Positions 2,785-16,380 of a stretch of DNA of 17,968 nt are shown here, in pieces. A model generated the notes under the pieces. The model saw nothing but the letters and a program-made list of their open reading frames with translations. It was not told the origin of the DNA and did no database searches. Numbering within the stretch: position 1 is the stretch's first letter; each line of letters begins with the position of its first letter. Source of the DNA: Vicinamibacterales bacterium (GTDB lineage: Bacteria; Acidobacteriota; Vicinamibacteria; Vicinamibacterales; CAVVIG01); contig DATFXR010000157.1 in the NCBI GenBank assembly GCA_035315685.1, forward strand, positions 1 through 17,968. The letters run 5' to 3'. The position numbers were made by a program, and so were the translations under genes.

Positions 2785-3225
2785 ATGAGGCAGATGGTGC
2801 AGCTCGCGGTTGTGGTGCTGCCGATCCTCGGCACGGCGTCGTTCGCGGCACCGGCCGCGACGGACGCCGAGATTCGCGCGATCGAGAAGCAGTGGAACGA
2901 GGCGCGCGTGAAAGCCGATATCGCGACGCTCGATCGCCTGCTCGATCGCGACTGGACCGTGACCCACGGCGACGGCACGATCGACACCAAGGCGGAGTAC
3001 CTCGGCGATTTGCGGTCCGGCGCGCGGAAGTTCTTCGCGGACGTCACCGAGGATCACGTCGACGTGCGCGTCTACGGAGACACCGCCGTCGCGTCCGGCA
3101 CGAGCGATTCGAAAGTGGAATACAAGGGCAGGCCGTCCGGTGGTCCGCTCCGCTTCACGCGCGTTTACATCAAGCGCGACGGCCGCTGGCTGATGATCGT
3201 CACGCACGCCACGCGCAGGAATTAA
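2785..3225 (+). CDS. DUF4440 / SnoaL-like (NTF2-fold) domain protein, predicted secreted
   Basis: ATG 2785 is preceded by GAGGAG (2774-2779). The listed ORF 2533..3225 is an upstream extension with no RBS and Arg-rich junk. The translation MRQMVQLAVVVLPILGTASFAAPAATDAEIRAIEKQWNEARVKADIATLDRLL...VYIKRDGRWLMIVTHAT fits the DUF4440/NTF2-like pattern (IxAIEKQW...D..ALD.L..DDW....DG....K.EYL). The stop TAA 3223-3225 is contributed by the first heptamer of the downstream repeat element. Confidence 0.7.
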   Translation: MRQMVQLAVVVLPILGTASFAAPAATDAEIRAIEKQWNEARVKADIATLDRLLDRDWTVTHGDGTIDTKAEYLGDLRSGARKFFADVTEDHVDVRVYGDTAVASGTSDSKVEYKGRPSGGPLRFTRVYIKRDGRWLMIVTHATRRN

Positions 3226-3328
3226 GAATTGAGAATTAAGAATTGAGAATTCGTGCCACGCTGGCAAGAGGCGAAATGTTGCGGTCGTGATCACGAATTC
3301 TTAATTCCAAATTCATAATTCTTAATTG
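3220..3328. repeat. AT-rich palindromic element built of 7-bp units (AATTAAG/AATTGAG ... AATTCTT/AATTCCA), family 1 copy 1
   Basis: Left arm 3220-3255: AATTAAG AATTGAG AATTAAG AATTGAG AATTCGTG. Right arm 3292-3328: CACGAATTC TTAATTCC AAATTCA TAATTCT TAATTGC. The arms are about 85% reverse-complementary, with a perfect 9-bp GAATTCGTG/CACGAATTC base, around a 36-nt GC-rich spacer. Composition is under 25% GC in a ~68% GC background. It overlaps the last codon and stop of the upstream CDS. Confidence 0.85.
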
Positions 3329-5082: not shown

Positions 5083-5197
5083 GCAATTAAGAATTAAAGA
5101 AGTAAGAATTAAGAATTCCTGATCAGGCTGTCGCACTGCCTGGCAGCGGAACAGCGTGACGCGCATTCTTAATTCTTAATTTGTAATTCTTAATTGC
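5083..5197. repeat. AT-rich palindromic 7-bp-unit element, family 1 copy 2 (GCAATTAAGAATT...AATTCTTAATTGC termini)
   Basis: Left arm 5083-5121: GC AATTAAG AATTAAA GAAGTAA GAATTAA GAATTCCTG. Right arm 5161-5197: GCGC ATTCTTA ATTCTTA ATTTGTA ATTCTTA ATTGC. The arms are reverse-complementary apart from a 1-nt indel and a few mismatches, around a 39-nt GC-rich spacer containing CTGCC-T-GGCAG. The terminal 13 nt match copy 1. It lies 25 nt after the msrA stop and ends 3 nt before the hrpB ATG. Confidence 0.85.
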
Positions 5198-5200
5198 CCG

Positions 5201-7570
5201 ATGCCGGTCCAAGCACTTCCAATCGACGGGTACATCGAACCAATCATCGCAGCAGTCCGCCGCTCGCGTGCGGTCGTAGTCACCGCCGCGCCGGGGGCTG
5301 GAAAAACCACGCGCGTTCCGCCGGCGCTGCTCGTTGACGGTCCGGTGATCCTCCTGCAGCCGCGGCGCGTCGCGGCGCGCGCGATCGCGGCGCGGGTTGC
5401 CGCTGAACGCGGCTGGACTCTCGGCCGCGAGGTCGGTTGGCAGGTGCGCTTCGAGCGCCGCTTCTCGGCCGAGACCGCGCTGCTCGTCGTCACCGAGGGG
5501 GTACTCACAGCGCGGCTGCAACACGATCCGCTGCTGTCGAAGTTCCGCACGGTCGTGCTCGACGAGTTTCACGAGCGAAGCGTGCACGCCGACGTGGCCC
5601 TTGCCCTCGCCCGTCAGGCCTGGCGCGCCCGTTCGACCGCTGCCGCTTCGTCCTCGGCGACGTCGACCGACGAGGACCTGCGCATCGTCGTCATGTCGGC
5701 GACGCTCGACGCGGATGCGGTGGCGTCGTTCCTCGGCGACTGCCCGATCGTCGCCGTGCCGGGCCGCACCTATCCTCTCGACGTCACCTACACGCCCGGT
5801 GTGCCGATCGGTGAAGCCGCCTCGAGTGCGCTGGCGGCGACGGGCGGGCAGGTGCTCTGCTTTCTCCCGGGCGCCGGGGAGATTCGCCGCGCGGCCGCCG
5901 ACATCGAGCCGCGCGTCGGAGCGGACGTCGAAGTAGTGCCGCTCCATGGATCGCTGGACGCCGACGCACAGGGCCTGGCGCTCCGTCCGTCATCTCGCCG
6001 CCGGATCGTCGTCGCCACGAACATCGCGGAAACGTCGCTGACGGTTCCGGGCGTCACCGCCGTCGTCGATACTGGTCTGCAGAAGATTGCGCGGTACGAC
6101 GCCGACCGCGGCATCGACAGTCTCGAGACCGAGCGTGTCACTGCAGATGCTGCCGATCAGCGCGCCGGCCGTGCCGGCCGCCTCGCACCCGGCATCGTGC
6201 GGCGGCTCTGGGATCGGCGCGATCGATTGCGGCCGCATCGCGAGCCGGACATCCGGCGAATCGATCTGGCCGGCACGGTGCTCGATGTGATTGCCTGGGG
6301 CGGCGATCCACGGACGCTCGACTGGTTCGAAGCGCCGCCGGCCGATGCGATCGCCGCTGCGCTGACGCTGCTCGGGCGGCTCGGTGTGATCGACGGACGC
6401 GGCCGGCTGACCGCGTTGGGCGAGCAGGTGCGGCGGATCCCGCTGCATCCACGACTCGCGTGCATGCTCGCCGCCGCCGGCGGCGGACCTCAGATGGCGC
6501 GGGCCTGTGCGCTTCTCTCCGAACGCCATCTGTTGCCGCCGCGCAGCGCATCTACCACATCCGATCTCCTGTCGGCGCTGGATCACTGGTCCGGGATGCC
6601 GCCGCATGTCCACCACGCGGCGGCGAGTATCCAGTCCGCGTTTCGGTCAGCCATCAGCCCTCAGCCCTCAGCCATTGACCGCGGCGAGGCGGTATTCCGC
6701 CGGGCCGTCCTGTCCGGATATCCCGACCGGGTCGCACAGCGACGCGCGCCGGGATCGCCGGAAGTGCTGCTCGCCTCCGGCACGGGCGCCACAATCGCCC
6801 GCGACAGCGGCGTCCATGACGGCGAGTTTCTCGTCGCGGTCGACGTCGCGCGACGGGCGGCGCCCGCCACGGCTCTGGTCCGCATCGCGAGCCGCGTCGA
6901 GCGCGAATGGCTCGCGCCGACCGCATCAGAGACCGTGCACCGTTTCGACGGATCGAGCGGCCGCGTGAGGGCGTTCGCCATCGAGCGCTATCTGGCGCTG
7001 GTTCTCGGCGAGCAGCCCGTCGCCGCCGACGTCGACGTTGCCGCACGGATGCTCGCTGACGCCTGGCTGGCGCGCGGACCTCGCGGCGCCGATGCGCAGT
7101 TGCTGCGCCGCCTGCGCTTCGCCGGACACGAGGCGGACGTTGCAGAATTGATCCGCACTGCCGCGTACGGTGCGCGATCGCTCGATGCGGTCACGCCTGG
7201 CGCTGCGCTCACGCCAGCCGTCCTGCGCGATCTCGACCGCGACGCGCCGGAGATGCTCGCGGTGCCCAGCGGCCGCAGCGCACGCCTCGAGTACAACGAG
7301 GATGGGACGGTGTCGGCGTCGGTGAAGCTCCAGGAACTGTTCGGTCTCGCCGACTCACCGCGAATCGGGCGCCGCCGCGAGCCTGTTGTCCTCGCACTGC
7401 TCGCGCCGAACGGCCGTCCCGTCCAGATCACGCGCGACCTGCGCAGCTTCTGGAACAACACGTATCCGGAAGTACGAAAGGAGCTGCGCGGCCGCTACCC
7501 GAAGCACCCGTGGCCCGAGGATCCGTGGAGCGCACAGCCGACGCATCGGACTGTGCGCCGGAAGCATTGA
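5201..7570 (+). CDS. hrpB: ATP-dependent RNA helicase HrpB (DEAH-box family)
   Basis: 789 aa. Walker A APGAGKTT, DEFHERS (DEAH-box variant), SATLD, FLPGAGEI, TNIAETSLTV.GV..VVD.G and QRAGRAGR are all present, followed by an HrpB-type C-terminal domain (...RYPKHPWPEDPW). The N-terminus is colinear with E. coli HrpB. Confidence 0.92.
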   Translation: MPVQALPIDGYIEPIIAAVRRSRAVVVTAAPGAGKTTRVPPALLVDGPVILLQPRRVAARAIAARVAAERGWTLGREVGWQVRFERRFSAETALLVVTEGVLTARLQHDPLLSKFRTVVLDEFHERSVHADVALALARQAWRARSTAAASSSATSTDEDLRIVVMSATLDADAVASFLGDCPIVAVPGRTYPLDVTYTPGVPIGEAASSALAATGGQVLCFLPGAGEIRRAAADIEPRVGADVEVVPLHGSLDADAQGLALRPSSRRRIVVATNIAETSLTVPGVTAVVDTGLQKIARYDADRGIDSLETERVTADAADQRAGRAGRLAPGIVRRLWDRRDRLRPHREPDIRRIDLAGTVLDVIAWGGDPRTLDWFEAPPADAIAAALTLLGRLGVIDGRGRLTALGEQVRRIPLHPRLACMLAAAGGGPQMARACALLSERHLLPPRSASTTSDLLSALDHWSGMPPHVHHAAASIQSAFRSAISPQPSAIDRGEAVFRRAVLSGYPDRVAQRRAPGSPEVLLASGTGATIARDSGVHDGEFLVAVDVARRAAPATALVRIASRVEREWLAPTASETVHRFDGSSGRVRAFAIERYLALVLGEQPVAADVDVAARMLADAWLARGPRGADAQLLRRLRFAGHEADVAELIRTAAYGARSLDAVTPGAALTPAVLRDLDRDAPEMLAVPSGRSARLEYNEDGTVSASVKLQELFGLADSPRIGRRREPVVLALLAPNGRPVQITRDLRSFWNNTYPEVRKELRGRYPKHPWPEDPWSAQPTHRTVRRKH
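6648..6675 (+). repeat. intragenic run of four tandem heptamers CAGCCAT CAGCCCT CAGCCCT CAGCCAT inside hrpB (encodes SAISPQPSAI)
   Basis: Direct 7-bp tandem repeats read in the sequence. The unit is the reverse complement of the ATGGCTG unit used by the intergenic elements at 11904-11940 and 16280-16380. It lies in the variable linker between the helicase core and the HrpB C-terminal domain, and the frame is preserved. Confidence 0.7.
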
Positions 7571-7613: not shown

Positions 7614-8366
7614 CTAAAGGCGTCGCGCTACGTCAGGAGCATCGAGCGCTCCAAGCAGCGGCTGACCGGCGCGGGCAGCGTAGAAACCGAACGCGGCCGA
7701 GGCCAGGACGAGCGCGATCGAGAGATTGCCGGGCAGGGCCGCCCAGCTCGCGGCATGCGGCAGGATCGGTGCGACCGTCACGATGTTGTCCACGATGAGC
7801 ATCACCGCCGTCACCAGCAGGCCGAACCTGAAGATCGCCAGGGTGATGATGCCGATCGCCGTGAGCTGGCCGACCACGTAGAGCGACAACTCCTGACCGA
7901 ACGGGATGTTGCTCGTCACCGCAGCGGTGACGACGGTCATCCCGACCGCGACCGCGATCCACGTCCGCCTCACGATCAGGCGCAGGCCGACGAAGGTCAT
8001 CGTGATGAGCAGCGCGGTCTGAACGCTGCTGTAGAACTGGCCGGCCCAGGCCAGGATGAGCGAACCTGCGCCGCTCAGCACGCGCACGTCGCCATCCAGA
8101 AACGGCAGCGCGGGCGCGCGTCCGATCTGGTACGGCATCGCACCGCGGAACCCGTCGTTGACGATCAGCGCGGCTCCGAGCGCGACGCCGATCAGGATCT
8201 CGCGGCCGATTCGCGGGTCGCGGACGTGTCCGGCAAACAGCCGCGTCCATCCGAGCAGGCCGTCGGGCCAGAACCGCCGGCCATATGGCTCGAGCGCGAC
8301 GTAGAGCACCCACAACAGCGCGACTTGAAACAGCATGTTGCCGCAGACGCGGAAGAAGCTGTTCAC
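7614..8366 (-). CDS. polytopic membrane protein, stand-alone paralog of the C-terminal transmembrane domain of the upstream Ser/Thr kinase
   Basis: 250 aa from GTG 8366 (ATG alternative at 8336), hydrophobic throughout. It aligns clearly to kinase residues ~640-882: LYVALEPYGRRFWPDGLLGWTRLFAGHVRDPRIGREILIGVALG vs IYAALEPYGRRFWPEMLLGWSRLLSGRIRDPRVGRDVLLGVTFG, and C-termini FGFYAARAGQPLLG vs FGFYASRAGEPLFG. The frame upstream of 8366 hits a stop at 8424 and shows no kinase homology, so this is a separate gene, not a frameshifted continuation. Confidence 0.75.
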   Translation of the reverse strand: MNSFFRVCGNMLFQVALLWVLYVALEPYGRRFWPDGLLGWTRLFAGHVRDPRIGREILIGVALGAALIVNDGFRGAMPYQIGRAPALPFLDGDVRVLSGAGSLILAWAGQFYSSVQTALLITMTFVGLRLIVRRTWIAVAVGMTVVTAAVTSNIPFGQELSLYVVGQLTAIGIITLAIFRFGLLVTAVMLIVDNIVTVAPILPHAASWAALPGNLSIALVLASAAFGFYAARAGQPLLGALDAPDVARRL

Positions 8367-8475
8367 CTCGGCCGCCGGGCGCGGGCGTGACGGCCGGCGG
8401 CCCGACCGTGACGTCGAATTCGGTCACGACATCTACCTCGGCCCCCTGACGCTCGGCTACAGCCTTCGCGCTCCG

Positions 8476-11091
8476 TTATGGCGGCGCGAATTTGCCGAAC
8501 AGCGGCTCGCCGGCGCGTGAGGCGTAGAAGCCGAACATGGCCAGCAGGACGATGGCGGCAATGGTCCAGTTCGACGCCGTCGCCGACCAGTGAGACACCT
8601 GCAGCGTGAACGGGACCGCCTGGCACAGACCGACCACGATCCTCGCAACCGCCGCTGCCAGCAATCCGAACCGTATCAGCACGAACGTGAATGCCGCGGC
8701 GATGATCAGCTCATAGGTCACCTCAACGGGCAGCGCTGCAGTGAAGGTCAATGTCGACCACCAATAAATGATGATCACCATCGCGATCGGGACTGCCAGC
8801 GACGCACGGCGCGTGAGCAGACGGAGCACGACCAGCAGCAGCACGCTACCCAGCGCGACCTGCAGCTCGCGCAGGATGATGGTCGCCCAGTCGGAGATCG
8901 TCTCTGCCGCGCCGAAGAGAGTGGTCGCGTCACTGCCCATCCGCGGCACCGTGCCCGGGTACCCGAGCGCCTGCGGCAGCAGCCGGCGCGCGATCTCCAG
9001 GCCAAACCAGACGACGCCGAACGTCACGCCGAGCAGCACGTCGCGGCCGACGCGCGGGTCGCGGATGCGCCCGGACAACAGTCGGCTCCAGCCCAGCAGC
9101 ATCTCCGGCCAGAATCGACGGCCGTACGGCTCGAGCGCCGCGTAGATCGTCCACAGAATCACGCCGAGCGCCACGGCATCGCTGAGGACCGCGCTCAGCG
9201 ACAATGCCTCCAGCCGCAAGTCGGGCAGGTGATGGTTGCCGGTCACCCACGACACCAGCTCCGTGCAGACGGCGAAGATGGCGACGCGCATCGCGCCGCG
9301 CCGGTCGGCACGGCCGTGCCGCACGTTGTAGCGTGCCAGCACGACGGCGCCGCCGAGCAGCGCGACGAGTACGGTCAGGAACACCGCATACCCGATCCGG
9401 TCTTCGAGTGCCCGCTGCACGGCCTGCATCCGCGTCGGCACGGTCCACGGACCGATCAGCAGGAACGACACGGCGCGGCCGCGATACGCCGCGGCCTCGA
9501 CCCGCACCCGCAAGTCGGCGCGGCCCGGCAGCGCGCCTTCCCACGCCCCGCGCGCGTCGGCGTAGTCGCGCGGCGTCCACTGGGTCTCGACCGCCGTGAA
9601 GTCGCGCATCGGCAGATCCGCGAGCTCGAACAGTTGCGGCCACGGCGGCGGTATCGCCGCCGCGGCTCCGCCGTCTTCGAACTGGCGAGGCACCGACGTG
9701 AACCCGATCAGCCGCCCGTGCATGTCAATCGTCACGGTATGCATGTCGGTGTCCGCCTGCGGCGGATCGAGCGGCGTCACGTGCAGCGCAAGCTGTCGCG
9801 GCGCGAGCGTGTGTGGGCTGGTGCGATACCAGAAGATGAATCCCGGCGGCCGATCGCGCCCGAGCACGTCCCAGCGGTTCGGGCTCAGATCCGTTCTCGC
9901 GATCCACACGATGTACGGCGCATACGGCCCGAGGCCGTGCGCCGTATCGCCGCGCGGCTCGTTGTAGCCGAGCGCGCTGAGGATCTGCTCGGCCCGATCG
10001 TCGAGGACCGCGGGCGGCTTGTCGAGCGGCAGCAGCCGCGACAGCGTCGTCCGCGTCGCGAATCCGGCGCAGAGCAGCATCGCGATCGTCACGAAGAGGA
10101 GCGCCGACAATCCCTTCGTGACTGGCCACGCATCGGTCTCGCCGGCCGCGGCCACCATGTCGGGCGACGGCGTTTCGCCGGCGGCCAGCGCCGCGGCGAG
10201 TGGATCGCCACCGGGCAGCGCGGCCGCGACCGTCAGTACCGACGCCGGCCGCTCGTCCGGATCGCGCGCGAGGCAGCGGAGGATGACGCGCTCCACCGCC
10301 GGATCGAGATCGCGCACGATCGCCGACGGCGTCGTGATGGTGCCGGTGTCATGCAGCTGTCTCAATTCGCCGAGGGTCTTCGCGTCGTAGGTCCGGCGGC
10401 CGGTGACGATCTCGAACAGAATCAACCCGAGCGCGTAGAGGTCGCTCTTGATCGACGCCGGTTTGCCGGCGAGCAGCTCCGGCGCCATGTACTGCGGCGT
10501 GCCTGCAACGTCGACGCCGATGTCGTTCGCCGCCGTCGCGATGCCGAAATCGGTGATGCGGACGTTGCCGTCGCCGTCGATCATCACGTTCGCCGGTTTG
10601 AGATCGCGATGGATGACGCCGCGTTCGTGCGCCGCGGCGATCCCGGCGCAGAGTTGCCGCGCGACGTCGATCGCCTTGTCCTGGGGGAAGCGGCCGATGC
10701 GGCGGAGCAGCGACGCGAGATCTTCGCCGTCCACGTATTCCATCGTCAGGAACCGCCGCCCGTCGGCGTCGCCGAGGTCGTAGAGACGGCAGACGTTCTT
10801 GTGCGACACTTGGCGCGCGATGCGCAGCTCGTTGTGGAACTGCGCGAGCCGCACGGGATCAGCGGCGACACCTTCGGGGAGGAACTTGAGCGCGACCGGC
10901 TGGTCGAGGGTGAGGTCGTCGGCGCGGTAGACCTCGCCCATGCCGCCGCGGCCGAGGAGCGCGACAAGGCGATAGCGCGCGGCGATAATCGATCCCGGGG
11001 CGAACCGGCTCGTTTTTGGCGGCGGTGCCTGCGGCGCCGTCCGCACCATTGACGGCTCGAGCGTGAGATCGTCCTCAGGGGACCGCGGCAT
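8476..11091 (-). CDS. Hanks-type serine/threonine protein kinase fused to a periplasmic segment and a large C-terminal multi-TM domain
   Basis: The kinase subdomains are readable: LGRGGMGEVY (Gly loop), ALK, HRDLKPANV (catalytic loop), DFG, APE. A TM helix (LSALLFVTIAMLLCAGFA) follows, then a ~230-aa non-hydrophobic segment, then ~7 predicted TM helices. The start is uncertain, with no obvious SD at GTG 11124 (longest), ATG 11091 or ATG 11049. The stop at 8476 is firm. Confidence 0.88.
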   Translation of the reverse strand: MPRSPEDDLTLEPSMVRTAPQAPPPKTSRFAPGSIIAARYRLVALLGRGGMGEVYRADDLTLDQPVALKFLPEGVAADPVRLAQFHNELRIARQVSHKNVCRLYDLGDADGRRFLTMEYVDGEDLASLLRRIGRFPQDKAIDVARQLCAGIAAAHERGVIHRDLKPANVMIDGDGNVRITDFGIATAANDIGVDVAGTPQYMAPELLAGKPASIKSDLYALGLILFEIVTGRRTYDAKTLGELRQLHDTGTITTPSAIVRDLDPAVERVILRCLARDPDERPASVLTVAAALPGGDPLAAALAAGETPSPDMVAAAGETDAWPVTKGLSALLFVTIAMLLCAGFATRTTLSRLLPLDKPPAVLDDRAEQILSALGYNEPRGDTAHGLGPYAPYIVWIARTDLSPNRWDVLGRDRPPGFIFWYRTSPHTLAPRQLALHVTPLDPPQADTDMHTVTIDMHGRLIGFTSVPRQFEDGGAAAAIPPPWPQLFELADLPMRDFTAVETQWTPRDYADARGAWEGALPGRADLRVRVEAAAYRGRAVSFLLIGPWTVPTRMQAVQRALEDRIGYAVFLTVLVALLGGAVVLARYNVRHGRADRRGAMRVAIFAVCTELVSWVTGNHHLPDLRLEALSLSAVLSDAVALGVILWTIYAALEPYGRRFWPEMLLGWSRLLSGRIRDPRVGRDVLLGVTFGVVWFGLEIARRLLPQALGYPGTVPRMGSDATTLFGAAETISDWATIILRELQVALGSVLLLVVLRLLTRRASLAVPIAMVIIIYWWSTLTFTAALPVEVTYELIIAAAFTFVLIRFGLLAAAVARIVVGLCQAVPFTLQVSHWSATASNWTIAAIVLLAMFGFYASRAGEPLFGKFAPP

Positions 11092-11117
11092 GCGACGAAT
11101 TCTACTGGAGGAGAGAA

Positions 11118-11762
11118 ATGACACGGACAGTCATGGCAACATGCGGCGCGGCGCTGTTGCTGAGTGCAGCGCTCATCGCGCAGGGCGGCCGACCGGCGAG
11201 TCCCGCCGGGTCGTCAGCCACGCAGGTCGGCGGCAAGTACGACACCAGCGGCGCCGAACCTGTCTACAGGGGCGGCAAATGGATTGAAATCACCTACGGC
11301 CGTCCGATCAAGCGCGGCCGCGACATCTTCGGTGGCACTGGCGACAACTACGGCAAGACGGCCAATCCTGACGCACCGGTCTGGCGAGCGGGCGCGAACG
11401 TGTCGACCCAGCTCAAGACCGAAGTGCCGCTGGTGATCAACGGCAAGACGGTCGCGCCCGGTACCTACACGATGTTCATCGATCTCAAGCCGAGCAACTG
11501 GACGCTGATCATCTCCAACTGGAAGGCGGCCACGACGTTCAATCAGAACAACGACGCCAGCAAGACCGGCGAAGTCTTCGGCGCCTACGGCTATTCGCCG
11601 GAAAAGGACGTGGTCCGCGCCGTGATGAAGACGTCGACGCTGCCGTTCTCGGTCGATCAGCTCACGTGGAACTTCACGGACATGAGCGATGCCGGCGGCA
11701 ACATCACGATCATGTGGGACAAGATGACCGCCTCCGTACCGTTCCGCGTCGGCGGCTCGTAG
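11118..11762 (+). CDS. DUF2911-like secreted protein
   Basis: ATG 11118 is preceded by GGAGGAG (11105-11111). The N-terminal signal-like segment is MTRTVMATCGAALLLSAALIAQG. Motifs WRAGANVST, GKTVAPGTYTMF, WTLIISNW and GAYGYSPEKDVVRA match my recollection of the DUF2911 family. Confidence 0.7.
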   Translation: MTRTVMATCGAALLLSAALIAQGGRPASPAGSSATQVGGKYDTSGAEPVYRGGKWIEITYGRPIKRGRDIFGGTGDNYGKTANPDAPVWRAGANVSTQLKTEVPLVINGKTVAPGTYTMFIDLKPSNWTLIISNWKAATTFNQNNDASKTGEVFGAYGYSPEKDVVRAVMKTSTLPFSVDQLTWNFTDMSDAGGNITIMWDKMTASVPFRVGGS

Positions 11763-11815
11763 AACCGATGGGACTGATGGGCCCATAGGGTGGCTGGGGC
11801 TCGCCGAACCTTTCG

Positions 11816-11902
11816 ATGGTTCGAGACTTCACGCACATTCTGCGGCTGTTACGGCGCGCGCCAGGGTTCAGCGCCGTGGCCGTCATCGTTCTCGCGCTCG
11901 GT
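11816..11902 (+). pseudogene. remnant encoding only the N-terminal 29 aa of an ADOP-type (Acidobacterial duplicated orphan permease; FtsX/MacB-like) ABC permease
   Basis: The translation MVRDFTHILRLLRRAPGFSAVAVIVLALG matches the highly stereotyped ADOP N-terminus (..DLRYALRxLRKxPGFTAVAVLTLALGIGANTA..). Homology stops exactly where the heptamer repeat GATGGCT GATGGCT... begins at 11903. The frame then continues as repeat-derived junk to 12079. Confidence 0.55.
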
Positions 11903-11903
11903 C

Positions 11904-11940
11904 GATGGCTGATGGCTGATGGCATATGGTTAATGGTCAT
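11904..11940. repeat. tandem heptamer array GATGGCT GATGGCT GATGGCA TATGGTT AATGGTC, separating the ADOP remnant from the CRTAC1 fragment
   Basis: It shares an identical 19-mer ATGGCTGATGGCTGATGGC with the left arm of the element at 16280-16380. It contains the TAA (11931-11933) that closes the upstream side of the CRTAC1 reading frame. A degenerate ATGG-rich stretch (GATGGGACTGATGGGCCCATAGGGTGGCTGGGGC, 11767-11800) lies upstream of the ADOP remnant. Confidence 0.75.
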
Positions 11941-12071
11941 TCGTCGCCAACCAGAACGGCGACACCAACGGTCTGTTCCGGAACGACGGTGGCCATTTCG
12001 TCGACGTCGCGGGCGAGTGGGGTGTCGAGGCGCCGAGGCACTCGGCCGAGTTCGGCGGCGTCGGCCCCGCG

Positions 12072-12794
12072 GTGGCTGACTTCGATGGTGACGGCCTCCT
12101 CGATCTGTTCGTCGCCAACTATGGGCCGAGCGCGATGTACCGGAACGACCACGGCCGCCGGTTCGTCGACGTGACCCGTGACGTCGGCCTCTTCTTCGAG
12201 CAGCACGCGACCACGCCGTCATGGGGCGACTACGACAACGACGGCCGGCCGGACCTCTACGTGGCCGGCTTTCTGGTCAACGTCACGCACTATCCCGATC
12301 ATCTGTTCCACAACCTGCGCGCGGCGGGAGGTGGCGCCCGGTTCGAGGACGTGCTGCCGAAGCTCGTCGATCAGCACGACGGCAGTCACGGTGTGCAGTG
12401 GGTGGATTTCGACGGGGATGGCGCGCTCGACCTGGCGCTGACCAACAACGATCCGGCCGGCGGCCACTATCTGTTCAGGAATCTGCTTCCGGCGGCGCGC
12501 GCACGCCAGTCCCTCGCTGTCGACGTCGTCGACGGCCACGGCCACCACACGAAGGCGGGTGCCGAAGTACGTGTCTACGCGGCCGGCACACGCCGGCAGA
12601 TCTCGTCCGGTCTCGTTGACACCGGCGGCGGCTACTGCTCGCAGAACGTGATGCCGGTCCACGTCGCGACGGCCGATGCCGCGCGCGTGGACGTCGAGGT
12701 GACGTCGATGAGCGGGAGGGGACGTCGGACAACGCGCGTCGCCGGCGTCACCGTCGGCCAGGCGTCGCGCCCGCTCGTCGTGAAGGTGCCGTGA
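12072..12794 (+). CDS. CRTAC1-family (FG-GAP/VCBS repeats + ASPIC/UnbV domain) protein, C-terminal fragment; probably a 5'-truncated remnant
   Basis: From GTG 12072 it encodes DFDGDGLLDLFVANYG...RFVDVT, DYDNDGRPDLYVAG, VDFDGDGALDLALTNN (FG-GAP/VCBS units), then the UnbV/ASPIC-like C-terminus (VRVYAAG....SGLVDTGGGYCSQN). The same frame is open back to 11934 and still encodes a repeat unit (FVANQNGDTNGLFRNDGGHFVDVAGEWGV) with no start codon. There is no signal peptide. Full-length family members are typically much longer than this 240-aa fragment. Confidence 0.6.
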   Translation: MADFDGDGLLDLFVANYGPSAMYRNDHGRRFVDVTRDVGLFFEQHATTPSWGDYDNDGRPDLYVAGFLVNVTHYPDHLFHNLRAAGGGARFEDVLPKLVDQHDGSHGVQWVDFDGDGALDLALTNNDPAGGHYLFRNLLPAARARQSLAVDVVDGHGHHTKAGAEVRVYAAGTRRQISSGLVDTGGGYCSQNVMPVHVATADAARVDVEVTSMSGRGRRTTRVAGVTVGQASRPLVVKVP

Positions 12795-12859
12795 CTGGGG
12801 ACCGGGGACTGGGGCTGGGGCTGGGGCTGGGGTTGGGAGCTGGAGGCTGGGACTAGCTG
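12795..12859. repeat. G-rich tandem array CTGGGGA CCGGGGA (CTGGGG)x4 TTGGGAG CTGGAGG CTGGGAC; left arm of an imperfect inverted pair whose right arm is 12957-12986
   Basis: It starts at the base after the CRTAC1 stop. GGAGCTGGAGGCTGGGAC (12834-12851) is approximately complementary to GGCCCCCAGCTTCCAGCGC (12957-12975). Confidence 0.6.
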
Positions 12860-12870
12860 TCGTTACACCG

Positions 12871-12893
12871 GTAGTGTCCGGCTTGAGCCGGAC
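12871..12893 (+). other. second copy of hairpin motif GTAGTGTCCGGCTT-GAG-CCGGAC (perfect 8-bp stem GTCCGGCT/AGCCGGAC)
   Basis: 21 of 23 nt identical to 4312-4334 (GTAGTGTCCGGCTTCACCCGGAC). It lies in the spacer between the CTGGGG/CCCCAG arms. Confidence 0.5.
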
Positions 12894-12913
12894 GGTCGGC
12901 GAAGCTGCGGTTC

Positions 12914-12953
12914 GAAAATCCCGCGGTCTCTGCGTGTTTCCGCGGTTTGCGTT
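12914..12953. terminator. candidate bidirectional intrinsic terminator: GAAAATC - CCGCGG-N13-CCGCGG - TTTGCGTT between convergent genes
   Basis: A 6-bp GC stem (CCGCGG 12921-12926 / 12940-12945) is flanked by an A-run upstream and a T-run downstream. A U-rich tail therefore follows the hairpin on either transcript (UUUGCGUU on +, GAUUUUC on -). Confidence 0.4.
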
Positions 12954-12956
12954 CCC

Positions 12957-12986
12957 GGCCCCCAGCTTCCAGCGCCCAGCCCCGCG
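12957..12986. repeat. C-rich right arm GGCCCCCAGCTTCCAGCGCCCAGCCCCGCG, complementary to the CTGGGG array
   Basis: Reverse complement CGCGGGGCTGGGCGCTGGAAGCTGGGGGCC resembles GGGGCTGGGG...GGAGCTGGAGGCTGGG in the left arm. It ends 4 nt before the stop of the sigma-54 activator CDS (12991). Confidence 0.5.
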
Positions 12987-12990
12987 CCGA

Positions 12991-14319
12991 TCACCCGCGA
13001 TACCCCAATCTTCGCTTCATCGCGCGGACGGTGCCCCCGGGATCTCTCGACGCGCCGCGGCCGACGGTACCGAGCAGCCTTGCTGCCTGCGCGGCGTTGC
13101 CGCCGCTCTCCTCGAGCGCCACCGCCAGCGCGTCCCGCTCGAGCGCGCGCACTTCATCGCGGAGGTTGAGCCGTCCCGCCCGGAGCCGCTGCCGCAGCCG
13201 CGCCTGATCGACGACATAATCGCCGTGCCGCGACGTTCGCAGGATTCGCACCGGCAGATCCGACGGCAGCAGCTCGCGCCCCGCGCGCTTGTACACCATC
13301 GTCTCGAACATCACGTTGCGGAGCTCGCGGATGTTTCCGGGCCACGGATAGGCGGCCAGTGCGCGCAGTGCATCGGCGCGGATGGTCTCGACCGCCGGAC
13401 GCTGATGCTCCTGCGCAAATCGATCGAGAAAGTGCTGCGCCAGCCTCGGCAGATCCTCGATCCGCTCCCGCAGCGGGGCGAGATGGATGCGGACGATCGC
13501 CAGCCGCTCGTACAGGTCGGCGCCGAACCGCCCCGAGGCGACCAGCGGTTCCAGATCGCGGTTGGTCGCCGCCAGGATCCGGAAATCCACTTCGTGCCAC
13601 GCGTTCTCGCCGAGCCGGCTGACTACGCGATCCTCGAGGACGCGGAGGAGCTTCACCTGGGTTTCGAGCGGTGTGTCGTCGATCTCGTCGAGGAACACGG
13701 AGCCGCCCGCGGCGGCCATCAACTGGCCGTCGTAGGCCTGGACCGCGCCCGAGAACGCGCCGCGCGCATACCCGAACAGCTCCGCCTCCATCAGCTCGTT
13801 CGGAATGGCGGCACAGTTGATTGGCACGAACCGCCGATCGCGCCGCGGCGACCACGCGTGGATCTGGCGCGCGGCGACCTCCTTGCCGGTCCCGGTCTCG
13901 CCGGTCAGCAGCACCGCCATTGCGGTCTGCGCGACGCGGGCGGCCTGACGTAAGACCGCGCGTGACGCCGCGCTCACCTGCACGATGTGATCGGCCGCCG
14001 GAGGAACTGGCTCCGGCGCCAGCATTTCCTCGAGCCTGCTGACAATCGCGTCGGCCGCGTTCGTGCTGCCGAGCGCGACCACGTCGTATGCGCCGCGGAG
14101 CACGGCGTCGGCGGCACGAGCCGGCGGTACCGGCGCGGCCGAAATCCACAGCCACCGCCCGCGCTCCACGGCCGGCGCCGGCACCTTCACGCTGGTTGCC
14201 GTCGCGACCACGAGCGGCAGGTCCTCCGGGTCCTCCCGGTCAACGTGCATGCCGGCGGCGCGCAGGCGCGCCGCGACGTCACCGGACGGCGGTTTTCCAA
14301 CCCAGGCAATGCTGCGCAT
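12991..14319 (-). CDS. sigma-54-dependent transcriptional activator (NtrC/Fis family) with a degenerate receiver-like N-domain
   Basis: AAA+ sigma-54 interaction domain: Walker A GETGTGKE, the GAFTGA-equivalent loop ELFGYARGAFSGA, Walker B FLDEIDD, and the arginine-finger region NIRELRNV. The C-terminal Fis-type HTH is GGNAAQAARLLGTVGRG. The N-terminal ~110 aa lack the DD/D/K phospho-acceptor constellation. Confidence 0.85.
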   Translation of the reverse strand: MRSIAWVGKPPSGDVAARLRAAGMHVDREDPEDLPLVVATATSVKVPAPAVERGRWLWISAAPVPPARAADAVLRGAYDVVALGSTNAADAIVSRLEEMLAPEPVPPAADHIVQVSAASRAVLRQAARVAQTAMAVLLTGETGTGKEVAARQIHAWSPRRDRRFVPINCAAIPNELMEAELFGYARGAFSGAVQAYDGQLMAAAGGSVFLDEIDDTPLETQVKLLRVLEDRVVSRLGENAWHEVDFRILAATNRDLEPLVASGRFGADLYERLAIVRIHLAPLRERIEDLPRLAQHFLDRFAQEHQRPAVETIRADALRALAAYPWPGNIRELRNVMFETMVYKRAGRELLPSDLPVRILRTSRHGDYVVDQARLRQRLRAGRLNLRDEVRALERDALAVALEESGGNAAQAARLLGTVGRGASRDPGGTVRAMKRRLGYRG

Positions 14320-14398
14320 CGCCGGTATTAAAGCACGTCATGGCCGTCAATCAATTACTGATCTCTCACGAACCAGCGCCTAAACACGGCCGAAATGC

Positions 14399-14416
14399 CC
14401 GGCTCGGCAGATGCAC
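14399..14416 (+). promoter_or_regulatory. candidate sigma-54 (-24/-12) promoter cGGCtCG-N4-aTGCA for the flotillin-like gene
   Basis: GG at 14401-14402 and GC at 14413-14414 have the required 10-nt spacing. It matches TGGCACG-N4-TTGCW at about 9 of 12 positions. It lies ~55 nt upstream of ATG 14470 and next to a divergently encoded sigma-54 activator. It is not a perfect match. Confidence 0.3.
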
Positions 14417-14433
14417 CGATACACCGTATCGGT
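14413..14433. promoter_or_regulatory. perfect dyad CACCGATAC-ACC-GTATCGGTG overlapping the candidate -12 element
   Basis: 9-bp inverted repeat arms with a 3-bp spacer, read directly. It is 37 nt upstream of the flotillin-like start. It could be an operator, or a UAS for the adjacent activator. Confidence 0.4.
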
Positions 14434-14469
14434 GGACGCAAGCCAGTCCGCCTGGAAAGGACAGACGTC

Positions 14470-16278
14470 ATGCTCTCGCTGGTCTGGGAACACCTCTGGT
14501 TCTTCGTCGTGGCGGCCCCGCTCATCGTCATCGGGCTCGCCGTCGTCGCGTCCAGCGTCCGCATCGTCGGTGCGAACGAGTCGGGCCTGGTCGTCAAGCG
14601 GTTCGGGCCGGCGCTCGCCTCGGGCCGCATCGTCGCGCTCAACGGCGAAGCGGGGTATCAGGCGCGCATGCTGGCGCCGGGATGGCATTTCTTCCTGTGG
14701 CGTGTGCGCTATCGCGTGTACAAGGTGCCGACCGTTGTCGTGCGCCCTGGTGAGATCGCGCTCGTCGTGGCGGCTGACGGGGCCGCGATGCCGAGCGAGC
14801 GGGTGCTCGGCAAGGCGGTCGTCTGCAACAACTTCCAGGATGCGGAGGCGTTCCTCACCAACGGCGGCGAGCGCGGCCGGCAAATCATGGTACTGACCGC
14901 TGGTACCTACCGCATCAACCCGGCGCTGTTCGACGTGATCACGACGGCGTCGGCCACGAAAACCGGCCTGACGCCGGCCGACCTGCGCGTCTACCAGGTG
15001 CAGACGGACCGCGTCGGCATCGTGACGATGCTCGACGGCCGGCCGATTCCGGCGGGTGATCTTGCCGGCCCCGTGGTACCGGGGCACGAGAGCTTCCAGC
15101 GCGGCCAGGCGTTCATCGATGCCGGCGGCTGCCGTGGTCTGCAGGAGGAAGTCCTGCTGTCCGGCTCGTGGAACCTGAACCCGTGGCTGGCGCAGGTGGA
15201 GCAGGTGCCGCTCGTCGAAGTGCCGATCGGCTACGTCGGCGTCGTCGTCAGCTACGTCGGCCGCGAGCATCTCGACGTCTCGGGCGAATCGTTCACGCAC
15301 GGCGACCTCGTGGAGCGCGGGCGCAAAGGCGTGTGGGTCGACCCGCTGCTGCCCGGCAAGCATCCGCTGAACACGAAAGTGATGAAGGTGGAGCTCGTCC
15401 CGACGACGAACATCGTGCTGAACTGGGCGCAGCGGACCGAGGCGCACCACTACGACGAACGGCTGTCGTCGATCATCGTGCGTTCGAAGGACGGCTTCTC
15501 GTTCAGCCTCGACGTCTCGCAGATCATCCACATCGGCATGCGCAACGCGCCGCGGGTGATCTCACGCGTCGGCTCGATGCAGAACCTCGTCGATCACGTG
15601 CTGCAGCCGACCGTCGGCAACTACTTCCGCAACTCGGCGCAGCAGGTGACGGTGCTCGAGTTCCTCTCGGCGCGCTCGGAGCGGCAGCGCAACGCGTTCG
15701 AGAACATCCGGACGGCGATCGAGGCGTACGACGTCGAGTGCATCGACACGCTGGTCGGCGACATCGCGCCGCCCGCGGACCTGATGAAGACGCAGACCGA
15801 CCGCAAAATCGCGGAGGAGCTCGAGCGCACCTACGAGGTCCAGCGCGAGGCGCAGATCAAGCGTCAGGCGCTCGAGCGTGAGACCGCGGTCGCGAACCTG
15901 CAGGGTGAAGTGGTGCGATCGGAGCAGATGGTGAAAGTCGCGCAGCAGGACGCGCTGGCAGCGGCCGAACGCGCCCGCGGCGAAGGCAGCGCGCTGGAGC
16001 TCCGCGCCCAGGGTCAGGCGGCGTCGGTCCGGCTGGCGGGTGATGCGGAAGCGGCGGCGCTGCGCGCGGTCGGCGCGGCGAAGGCGGAAGCGTACAAGCT
16101 CGGAGTCGCGGCGGTCGGCGAAAGCGGCTATACGGCGATGCAGATCGCGACAATCCTTGGCGAGCACCACGTGAAGGTCGTACCGGAGATCGCGGTGACT
16201 GGTGATGGCGCGGGTGCAGGAATGGCGAATGTGATGCTCGCGAAACTCGTCGCTGCTGCGGGTGAGAAAAAGAACTGA
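14470..16278 (+). CDS. flotillin-like SPFH/band-7 domain protein (YqiK-type)
   Basis: ATG 14470 follows AAAGGA. The N-terminal membrane anchor is LWFFVVAAPLIVIGLAVVASSV. The ~600-aa product ends in an Ala/Glu-rich coiled-coil region (EAQIKRQALERETAVANLQ...AERARGEGSALELRAQGQAA...), which is the flotillin signature. I prefer the 14470 start over the longer 14395 start because of the RBS and the TM position. Confidence 0.8.
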   Translation: MLSLVWEHLWFFVVAAPLIVIGLAVVASSVRIVGANESGLVVKRFGPALASGRIVALNGEAGYQARMLAPGWHFFLWRVRYRVYKVPTVVVRPGEIALVVAADGAAMPSERVLGKAVVCNNFQDAEAFLTNGGERGRQIMVLTAGTYRINPALFDVITTASATKTGLTPADLRVYQVQTDRVGIVTMLDGRPIPAGDLAGPVVPGHESFQRGQAFIDAGGCRGLQEEVLLSGSWNLNPWLAQVEQVPLVEVPIGYVGVVVSYVGREHLDVSGESFTHGDLVERGRKGVWVDPLLPGKHPLNTKVMKVELVPTTNIVLNWAQRTEAHHYDERLSSIIVRSKDGFSFSLDVSQIIHIGMRNAPRVISRVGSMQNLVDHVLQPTVGNYFRNSAQQVTVLEFLSARSERQRNAFENIRTAIEAYDVECIDTLVGDIAPPADLMKTQTDRKIAEELERTYEVQREAQIKRQALERETAVANLQGEVVRSEQMVKVAQQDALAAAERARGEGSALELRAQGQAASVRLAGDAEAAALRAVGAAKAEAYKLGVAAVGESGYTAMQIATILGEHHVKVVPEIAVTGDGAGAGMANVMLAKLVAAAGEKKN

Positions 16279-16279
16279 G

Positions 16280-16380
16280 ACATGGCTGATGGCTGATGGC
16301 TCATGGCAATGGCTGATGGTTGAAGCGTTCAGCCATCGACCCTAGCCATTAGCCATTAGCCATTAGCCATTAGCCATGTC
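16280..16380. repeat. palindromic element of 7-bp units: (ATGGCTG)-type left arm / (AGCCATT)x4 right arm, family 2
   Basis: Left arm 16280-16320: ACATGGCT GATGGCT GATGGCT CATGGCA ATGGCT GATGG. Right arm 16328-16380: TTCAGCCATCGACCCT AGCCATT AGCCATT AGCCATT AGCCATT AGCCATG TC. It fills exactly the gap between convergent stops (16278 and 16385). The mismatches between arms are systematically G (left) opposite T (right), which pair as G-U in the + strand RNA but as C/A in the - strand RNA. Confidence 0.85.

Follow-up and report, generated by a model that had tools for sequence, protein, structure and literature searches.

The arrangement analyzed here was very probably left by two deletions flanking the surviving arm of a hairpin between ancestral neighbor genes, and the locus is a case of ordinary gene decay. 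The DNA studied (the window, 17,968 nucleotides) belonged to a soil bacterium of the Vicinamibacterales (Acidobacteriota), and in it a piece of an ADOP permease gene, an array of heptamers and a piece of a CRTAC1-family gene were found one after the other. The upstream neighbor, an intact DUF2911 gene (11118–11762, forward strand; Pfam PF11138, E=1e-31), was used as the left synteny anchor and occupied the equivalent position in contigs L005, L008, L007, L004, and L089. Its 3′ flank carried a degenerate heptamer-like stretch, read from the sequence (11768–11796, GATGGGA CTGATGGGC CCATAGG GTGGCTG), with the 10-bp palindrome ATGGGCCCAT inside it and a weak DNA fold (-12.2 kcal/mol, z -2.25). A one-armed G-rich array of CTGGGG[A/C] units, detected with TRF and in the sequence, began immediately 3′ of the CRTAC1 stop codon (12795–12851, forward strand). 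The Rfam scan of positions 11000–13200 gave no match, and in the promoter and terminator scan no site resembled a promoter and the scar gave no informative signal.

The ADOP permease was represented by its codons 1–29 (11816–11901, forward strand), as determined with the TIGR03434 profile and by protein and DNA alignment with L087, the nearest of the relatives in which the CRTAC1 gene is unbroken. The translation of nucleotides 11816–11902, MVRDFTHILRLLRRAPGFSAVAVIVLALG, preserved the stereotyped ADOP N-terminus (..LR.LRR.PGF....V..LALG), matched positions 2–29 of the 803 positions of NCBIfam TIGR03434 (E=6.2e-6, 24.6 bits) and was identical at 26 of 29 residues to the orthologous N-terminus in L087. 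The significance of this match bears out the ADOP remnant recognized in the preliminary description, which had let the homology run up to a first repeat base at 11903; the ADOP sequence ended instead at 11901, with the two bases TC as spacer between it and the array. A whole member of the family has two MacB_PCD plus FtsX modules, about 800 aa and a score of at least 622 bits, values far from those of this piece, and tblastn of the L005 ADOP protein against the window recovered residues 1–29 alone. Judged by its sequence, the piece is a remnant and no longer a member gene. A search for close homologues of the N-terminus yielded short partial proteins only.

The leader of the ADOP gene (11797–11815, forward strand) was common to the L087 orthologue, and in the DNA alignment that included it the window positions 11800–11901 corresponded to L087 13–114. 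The leader is probably native, because a related one precedes the ADOP orthologue of L087. For the same reason, the assignment of 11797–11818 to a piece of a DAP-dehydrogenase gene, with the scar as a four-part mosaic, was dropped. Separately, the leader was alike in 21 of 22 positions (the ATG counted) to a DAP-dehydrogenase-like coding stretch in contig L002, a likeness that is unexplained. This contig looked mosaic at both ends and had an alternative left flank, and in it EGSPNLSM, a genuine motif of the DAP-dehydrogenase family, read straight into the ADOP remnant.

On the other side of the array, a 3′ fragment of a CRTAC1-family gene comprised 284 codons and a stop (11940–12794, forward strand), as delimited by domain profiles, homologue alignments and a repeat count. 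Its frame was open from 11934, and homology began exactly at FVANQNGD, at nucleotide 11940. The full-length homologues (the closest being P0001, 93% identical, and P0002) had 485–499 aa, and the identity to proteins that carry the NCBI name CRTAC1 family reached 93%. Aligned to the orthologues, the fragment started near residue 216 and comprised the last 284 of some 490 residues (about 58%), not the C-terminal third initially proposed. Pfam matches were obtained for FG-GAP_3 (E=3e-21), FG-GAP (E=1e-11) and, at the borderline, UnbV_ASPIC PF07593 (E=7e-5, with 23.0 bits where the cut-off is 23.4). Three of the seven D-x-[DN]-x-D-G repeats were left, the signal peptide and the first four repeats were missing, and the first possible start codon in the frame was a GTG at 12072. 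The loss of the 5′ end, with start codon and signal peptide, was thus correctly noticed from the beginning.

Two ORFs of the ORF list derive from these pieces. The first was a hybrid of 87 codons (11816–12079, forward strand), made of the ADOP start and its 29 codons and continued out of frame through the array into CRTAC1; it had no Pfam match, and its exact product was absent from the protein collection. The second, annotated by gene callers, extended from the GTG (12072–12794, forward strand) and encoded 240 aa, a product also called on other contigs. It was considered highly improbable that this short ORF is a functional re-initiated gene, possibly coupled to the hybrid ORF. Its GTG shares bases with the stop codon that ends the hybrid ORF (GTGGCTGA), the 284-codon frame is intact with an overall dN/dS of about 0.14, and further samples also contain the 240-aa product, one of them as the 94%-identical variant P0105. 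Nevertheless, such a product would be devoid of the signal peptide and of four of the seven repeats of a closed repeat fold. A recent deletion predicts a low pairwise dN/dS (0.13–0.15 against intact orthologues), and omega was already raised on the window branch, about 0.16–0.18 versus about 0.10–0.12 on the L087 branch. Moreover, P0105 differed in 6% of its residues whereas the adjacent DUF2911 protein was identical, which fits relaxed constraint. Two proteins, P0088 (284 aa) and P0119 (248 aa), were considered as identically short CRTAC1 genes with a proper start and rejected, since in their contigs, L003 and L004, they derive from full-length genes broken by frameshifts, with homology extending upstream. 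Hence, the 240-aa ORF probably encodes no functional protein. By these measures the deletion is recent, because dN/dS is low, the 284 codons contain no stop and the window-branch omega is only slightly raised.

The scar arrangement was also found in three further metagenome assemblies, two of them checked on DNA. Contig L001 (ERZ27264556) covered the whole scar and was 99.94% identical, and L002 (ERZ27257192) contained both junctions, named J2 and J3 below. In the ERZ27275469 contig, compared through gene calls and not at the DNA level, DUF2911 and the 240-aa ORF were likewise 310 bp apart. Repeats can mislead assemblers, and the ends of L002 do look mosaic; however, chimeric joins at a repeat are barely credible as the origin of the scar, since two other samples, each assembled independently, yielded contigs in which both junctions were read, the third contig has the matching gene spacing, and the joined segments have no common repeat long enough to form a chimera. 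The junctions are therefore not an assembly error.

The two gene pieces, first described as unrelated, were found to come from neighboring genes. The order in L005 was the same as in the window: glyoxalase, PMSR, HrpB, kinase, DUF2911, ADOP (822 aa), CRTAC1 (499 aa), sigma-54 activator, Band7, and amidohydrolase. The alignment of syntenic regions suggested in the preliminary description thus recovered both genes intact. The order DUF2911-ADOP-CRTAC1 was present in L005 and L008, and the two genes are therefore ancestral neighbors and not an arbitrary pair. Close orthologous loci in the scan of genome contigs numbered only two (L007 and L008), and the pattern scan of JGI metagenomes gave one locus, L006.

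In other relatives, the ADOP gene was damaged in several ways. In L089 it broke off at about 100 aa, the DNA beyond being unrelated, lower in GC and free of heptamer arrays, and this contig ruled out its product P0245 as an ADOP protein ending in a translated repeat array. The L087 gene was missing residues ~84–528, and no array was present at the breakpoints inspected. P0264 consisted of 45 N-terminal and 29 C-terminal residues, P0261 of 79 and 8, respectively, and the orthologue was absent in L007, in L004 and in the P0005 contig. As read from these contigs, the accessory ADOP permease is a gene repeatedly lost through different lesions. The claim that heptamers drive genome plasticity is not demonstrated by this locus, ADOP having been lost or truncated elsewhere without arrays at the breakpoints inspected (L089 and L087).

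The stretch between the two gene pieces (11904–11939, forward strand; GATGGCT GATGGCT GATGGCA TATGGTT AATGGTC A) was assigned as a left hairpin arm through its identity to the spacer arm of relatives. TRF reported GATGGCT x2.9 with a period of 7 at 11904–11923, and the degenerate continuation, GATGGCA TATGGTT AATGGTC A, was followed by eye up to 11939. The 13-mer GATGGCTGATGGC, with one mismatch allowed, occurred 6 times in the window versus 0.07 expected. ATGGCTG-type arrays were located at three sites (6647–6675, 11904–11939, and 16282–16377), and arrays were present in about half of the window spacers, as counted from ORFs and TRF arrays.

In L003, L006, and L087, a heptamer hairpin filled the spacer from the ADOP stop to the CRTAC1 ATG, roughly 100 nt, with tandem ATGGCTG-type units in the left arm and complementary CAGCCAT-type units in the right arm. 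The folding energies were -33.7, -33.2, and -24.8 kcal/mol (z -7.3, -5.4, and -2.8), respectively. The 36-nt arm of the window was identical to that of L006 in 36/36 positions and to those of L087 and L003 in 34/36. The complementary partner arm was missing at the window locus and present only in these three relatives, and the window remnant had no stable fold (-10.9 kcal/mol, z -0.19, no better than shuffled sequence). Against Rfam, the L087 hairpin gave only a sub-threshold match to a plant microRNA precursor, which was regarded as spurious. Since the array, its degenerate tail included, matches the orthologous spacer arm, these alignments indicate that it is an inherited relic, the left arm of an older ADOP-CRTAC1 intergenic hairpin, and neither an inserted nor a recombining element.

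The presence of ATGGCTG-type arrays at three window sites, and of arrays with other units at several variable gene boundaries in relatives, would also suit arrays that act as active recombination substrates, or as insertable filler joining two unrelated genes. This explanation is very unlikely and largely refuted. The 36/36 match to the L006 spacer arm includes the degenerate, non-repetitive tail GATGGCATATGGTTAATGGTCA, the other window arrays gave no comparable match, and in L005 and L008, where ADOP and CRTAC1 are intact, the breakpoint sites within them have no ATGGCTG-type partner array; furthermore, both genes were already adjacent. Thus, of the repeat-associated rearrangement proposed at first, the deletion scar at the array was upheld, but recombination between repeats or insertion was not, the array being an inherited left arm.

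Both breakpoints touched the heptamer array in the alignments to L087 and L006, in agreement with the scar as first described. Junction J2 (11899–11903), placed by eye in comparison with L005, L006, L003, and L087, connects ADOP codon 29 with spacer bases immediately to the left of the hairpin; it shows CGG microhomology and lies 2–5 nt from the hairpin foot, and the equivalent spacer site in L006 is ~12–15 bp past the ADOP stop. Junction J3 (11939–11940), placed by alignments, connects the arm with CRTAC1 codon ~216, ~10 nt 5′ of the apex (located from the L087 fold), with a microhomology of 0–1 bp. In the piecewise alignment, 11904–11939 corresponded to L087 1239–1274 and 11940–12010 to L087 1942–2012. 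The direct ancestor was unavailable and the breakpoints were placed via diverged relatives, with CRTAC1 77–89% identical; therefore, the microhomology lengths may be off by a few bases. J2 and J3 both fall at landmarks of the L087/L006 hairpin, which were chosen after seeing the data.

Because the hairpin arm was retained, this geometry calls for two deletions or for a single event that jumped twice. The ancestor carried DUF2911, the ADOP permease, the heptamer hairpin, CRTAC1, and the sigma-54 activator, with the hairpin as the entire ADOP-CRTAC1 spacer. Deletion A very probably began at ADOP codon 30 and ended a few bases short of the hairpin foot, spanning up to ~2.4 kb, with CGG-type microhomology at the join; since L087 was already devoid of ADOP ~84–528, it was perhaps smaller than 2.4 kb or stepwise. 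Deletion B, of ~0.67 kb and with an essentially blunt join, very probably took away the apex and right arm of the hairpin together with CRTAC1 codons 1 to ~215. The residue consists of the 29 ADOP codons, an unfoldable 36-nt arm and a start-less CRTAC1 pseudogene.

The position of the breakpoints, at the hairpin foot and near the apex, fits a fragile hairpin. It is plausible, at somewhat under an even chance, that the hairpin itself provoked the breaks, which may have arisen by replication stalling or through an SbcCD-type nuclease that cuts close to the tip, with subsequent end joining or template switching. That Vicinamibacterales heptamer hairpins are in general fragile sites, repeatedly seeding gene-loss deletions with breaks at foot and apex that are repaired in these ways, is unlikely; under this fragile-site reading, the DAP-dehydrogenase-like match of the leader and the left flank of L002 would be traces of the template-switching repair. 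A serious, if tentative, possibility is that unrelated illegitimate-recombination deletions occurred in dispensable genes, the hairpin being mechanically irrelevant. Damage or absence of the ADOP orthologue in many lineages by different lesions (L089, L087, P0264, P0261, L007, L004, and P0005) speaks for it, as does the L008 kinase, which suffered a comparable near-complete internal deletion; additionally, with arrays in about half of the spacers, proximity to one is not rare. The stop of deletion A at the hairpin foot could then reflect selection keeping CRTAC1 and its control region while ADOP was trimmed, and it is likewise possible, with some doubt, that larger deletions were not tolerated since they would have harmed a still-useful CRTAC1. 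However, selection leaves unexplained why deletion B starts within ~10 nt of the apex, and two random endpoints framing one arm are improbable (roughly 0.4% times 3%, uncorrected for post-hoc landmarks).

These results matter chiefly for annotation: the ORFs called here, a 240-aa "FG-GAP protein" and one of 87 codons, are the remains of two genes, and the array of heptamers represents a broken hairpin and not a stand-alone element. The locus offers a nucleotide-resolved natural case, from an uncultured soil phylum, in which deletion endpoints frame one intergenic hairpin arm. If an enrichment of breakpoints at hairpins held genome-wide, an abundant undescribed repeat class of the Vicinamibacterales would be linked to gene-content turnover, and, if the fragile-site reading were true, this turnover would have a lineage-specific driver in these hairpins.

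Compared with the ADOP family (TIGR03434), the stereotyped N-terminus was kept, but the remnant has 29 of ~820 residues and no MacB_PCD or FtsX domain. With respect to the CRTAC1/ASPIC-UnbV family, the FG-GAP_3 repeats were kept and the signal peptide and first four of seven repeats are gone. REP/BIME elements and REPINs are mobilized by RAYT transposases (PMC3333891, PMC3116915). The present repeats resemble REP/BIME as abundant hairpin-forming intergenic repeats at gene 3′ ends, but have no conserved REP-like core and form tandem arrays with units differing by site. Among the ORFs scanned in this window, no Y1 (RAYT) transposase was found and, unlike in REP/BIME mobilization, the arm was inherited at an orthologous site and not newly inserted.

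Intergenic heptamer repeats, convergent inverted pairs among them, have been described in Xanthomonas (GGGAATC) and Nostoc (GGGGA[T/C]T) (PMC4692102) and, as TAACTGA, in Beggiatoaceae and cyanobacteria (PMC4679880), and the over-representation of heptamers is credited to Mrazek 2007 (PMC4692102, PMC4679880). Those of the Vicinamibacterales share with these repeats the 7-nt unit, the intergenic location, the variable copy number and the frequent pairing of an array with its reverse complement into a stem-loop. They differ in the host and in the coexistence of unrelated units in one genome (GAATTAA, ATGGCTG, and CTGGGGC, with GCGGATT in relatives), and the ATGGCTG unit is not G-quadruplex-forming. 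A literature search returned no paper on such heptamer repeats in Vicinamibacteria.

Quasi-palindromes at deletion endpoints were reportedly described by Glickman and Ripley. In E. coli, SbcCD cuts hairpins formed by palindromes of 246–460 bp (PMC3315005, PMC4245961). The ancestral spacer likewise folds into a long hairpin, with breakpoints at the foot and ~10 nt from the apex; its arms, in contrast, are ~40 nt, imperfect, made of tandem heptamers and much shorter than the E. coli palindromes. Finally, in palindrome excision the whole palindrome is lost, whereas here one arm survives.

The translation of nucleotides 11816-11902 (MVRDFTHILRLLRRAPGFSAVAVIVLALG) matched positions 2-29 of the TIGR03434 (ADOP) profile, which has 803 positions (E=6.2e-6), and the stereotyped ADOP N-terminus of the preliminary description was thus confirmed. 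The heptamer array described between the ADOP and CRTAC1 pieces was likewise recovered as GATGGCT x2.9 at 11904-11923 (TRF), and its tail was followed by eye (GATGGCA TATGGTT AATGGTC A) as far as 11939. With one mismatch allowed, the window contained six copies of the core 13-mer, where 0.07 would be expected. Another frame, different from that of the ADOP remnant, was open from 11934, and no ATG, GTG or TTG was found in it between 11934 and 12072. Its 285-residue translation contained three FG-GAP_3 repeats and a borderline UnbV_ASPIC domain, and its database matches were proteins of 485-499 aa with identities of up to 93%, some of them named CRTAC1 family protein and originating from Vicinamibacterales. 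In the alignment with full-length homologues, the window began exactly at FVANQNGD, about residue 216, and kept three of the seven D-x-[DN]-x-D-G repeats of the intact proteins. What survives is thus 58% of the protein, counted from the C-terminus, rather than the C-terminal third, while the reported loss of the start codon stood. The homologues P0088 and P0119, considered as equally short genes with proper starts, were ruled out, as their contigs carry full-length genes broken by frameshifts. Directly 3' of the CRTAC1 stop, a one-armed G-rich array (CTGGGG[A/C] x about 9, 12795-12851) was observed with no complementary partner nearby; relatives carry two-armed GCGGATT/CAATCCG hairpins at this position.

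The gene order was conserved in L005, a contig of a relative. Its genes match those of the window one to one through glyoxalase, PMSR, HrpB, Ser/Thr kinase and DUF2911, and again through the sigma-54 activator, Band7 and amidohydrolase. In the interval that separates DUF2911 from the sigma-54 activator, L005 carries an ADOP permease (822 aa) and then a CRTAC1 gene (499 aa), and the pair is also present in a second contig, L008. What the window retains is thus the outer end of each of two neighboring genes, and the earlier reading of two unrelated fragments was not upheld. The ADOP orthologue of this locus has been damaged repeatedly by differing lesions: loss of the internal residues about 84-528 in L087 (29-1233), truncation at about 100 aa, where unrelated DNA takes over, in L089 (328-711), and mini-ORFs retaining only the N- and C-terminal tips (P0261 and P0264). 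From L007, L004 and the P0005 contig the gene is missing entirely. Elsewhere in the region, both strands of the interval from HrpB to the kinase (window 7614-8427) contain ORFs of about 250 aa, with no Pfam match and no counterpart at that position in L005. The Ser/Thr kinase of L005 has 874 aa; its counterpart in L008 (1115-1453, minus strand), which adjoins a GAAAAGA/ACTTTTC hairpin, keeps about 115 codons from the N-terminal end and about 14 from the C-terminal end.

The ADOP-CRTAC1 spacer was retained in three contigs, and in all three the entire spacer was a hairpin: L003 (88-206), L006 (1590-1706, minus strand) and L087 (1228-1338), the last belonging to the Vicinamibacterales MAG GCA_035259585.1, in which CRTAC1 shares 89% identity with the fragment in the window. 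The left arm, of ATGGCTG-type units, starts in the ADOP stop codon or immediately past it (TGATGGCTG in L087). The right arm, of CAGCCAT-type units, closes in the CRTAC1 start codon (AGCCATG), and therefore the predicted fold would bury it. The folding energies were -33.7, -33.2 and -24.8 kcal/mol for L003, L006 and L087, respectively (z -7.3, -5.4 and -2.8). Over its full length, degenerate tail included, the array in the window was identical to the left arm at 36/36 positions in L006 and 34/36 in L087, and its own fold was no better than that of shuffled sequence (z -0.19). On this comparison, the arm identity marks the array as an inherited half-hairpin, neither filler nor a newly arrived element.

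The breakpoints were placed by piecewise alignment to L087, where the leader and ADOP codons 1-29 (window 11800-11901) corresponded to 13-114, the left arm (11904-11939) to 1239-1274 and CRTAC1 (11940-12010) to 1942-2012. At the first junction, J2 (11899-11903), ADOP ..GCGCTCGG is joined to spacer ..CGGTC[G/A]ATGGCTG with CGG-type microhomology; in L006 this spacer site lies about 12-15 bp past the ADOP stop and 2-5 bp ahead of the first heptamer. At the second, J3 (11939/11940), ..AATGGTCA is joined to CRTAC1 TTCGTCGCC with 0-1 bp of microhomology, at an arm position about 10 nt 5' of the apex of the L087 fold. The loop of L003 and L006 imperfectly resembles (CAACCA...CGGCGAC) the CRTAC1 sequence that lies a few bases past J3. 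The deletion on the CRTAC1 side corresponds to 667 bp of L087 (1275-1941), and that on the ADOP side to about 2.4 kb with L005 as reference; since the L087 ADOP already lacks residues about 84-528, the last step of the latter may have been smaller. Retention of the arm requires two deletions, or a single event with two jumps, and the two-deletion account is highly probable. Of the repeat-associated deletion or rearrangement first proposed, the deletion scar held, but the joining of unrelated genes did not, given the L005 synteny and the hairpin-arm identity. Resolved to the nucleotide, the locus is a case of ordinary gene decay in a genome of the Vicinamibacterales.

An assembly error was checked against other samples. 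Both junctions were read in L001 (sample ERZ27264556), which spans the scar at 99.94% identity to the window, and again in L002 (sample ERZ27257192). In a contig of ERZ27275469, the spacing from DUF2911 to the 240-aa ORF (GTG 12072 to 12794) was 310 bp, as in the window, judged by gene calls only; the matching product, P0105, was 94% identical. No internal stop codons were found in the CRTAC1 fragment. Its pairwise dN/dS against intact orthologues was 0.13-0.15, like intact-intact comparisons, and three-taxon branch splitting gave an omega of about 0.16-0.18 on the window branch versus about 0.10-0.12 on the L087 branch. These results fit a gene that was recently released from constraint, and not a short gene that has been maintained.

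L002 was identical to the window over 11813-15479 and SNP-dense past 15480. Leftward of 11813 it matched a 2,4-diaminopentanoate-dehydrogenase-like gene (PF19328), whose EGSPNLSM, native to that gene family, reads straight into the ADOP remnant; in the relative L088 this gene lies at an unrelated locus. The window leader plus ATG (11797-11818) was identical to the L002 EGSPNLSM coding stretch (374-395) at 21/22 positions, and the orthologous L087 leader at 16/22. The locus switch falls inside this stretch, and the similarity may stem from a short conversion patch, from a genuine rearrangement at short homology or from a chimera of co-assembly at k=21. Further downstream of the dehydrogenase-like gene, L088 (10600-11100) carries an ADOP paralogue, preceded by what we take to be a PadR-type regulator and presumably beginning MSWSRFFRR..; this contig contains many frameshifts, probably long-read errors.

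Whether the hairpin caused the deletions is a nearly balanced question, with the odds slightly against. In its favor, the deletion endpoints frame exactly one arm, and breaks made through SbcCD at DNA that forms hairpins are documented in E. coli (PMC3315005, PMC4245961). Several points are neutral or unfavorable to causation. The landmarks were picked after the data were seen. Selection could also account for the ADOP-side deletion ending at the hairpin foot, if CRTAC1 remained in use while ADOP decayed. The ADOP orthologue has suffered lesions of other types elsewhere (L087, L089, P0261, P0264, L007, L004 and the P0005 contig). Heptamer arrays fill about half of the window spacers, always at 3' ends of genes (our count from ORFs and TRF arrays). 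The hairpin class itself, and whether hairpins nucleate deletions genome-wide, are worth following up.

Paired inverted arrays were also present at the 3' ends of genes at 3219-3327 and 5085-5195 (GAATTAA/AATTCTT) and at 16282-16377 (ATGGCTG/TAGCCAT; -41.5 kcal/mol, z -9.8), with the same unit family at orthologous spacers of relatives; they are possibly terminators or mRNA-end structures. The HrpB helicase ORF holds heptamer arrays in every relative examined, with differing units (TCAGCCA, ATTGCGG, CAATCCG): window 6647-6675 (in frame, ..FRSAISPQPSAIDRG..), L005 3090-3159, L008 90-155 and 323-359, and L004 4575-4608 and 4840-4916.

Rfam gave no match at the scar, and for the L087 hairpin it returned only a sub-threshold hit to a plant microRNA precursor, taken as spurious. 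No description of heptameric repeats of Vicinamibacteria was found in the literature. Unlike REP/RAYT systems, the heptamer units here vary between sites, and the window ORFs that were scanned included no Y1 transposase; hence, these elements are not REP/RAYT-like. Heptameric repeats are over-represented in bacteria, and convergent inverted heptamer pairs have been described in Xanthomonas (PMC4692102, PMC4679880, both citing Mrazek 2007).
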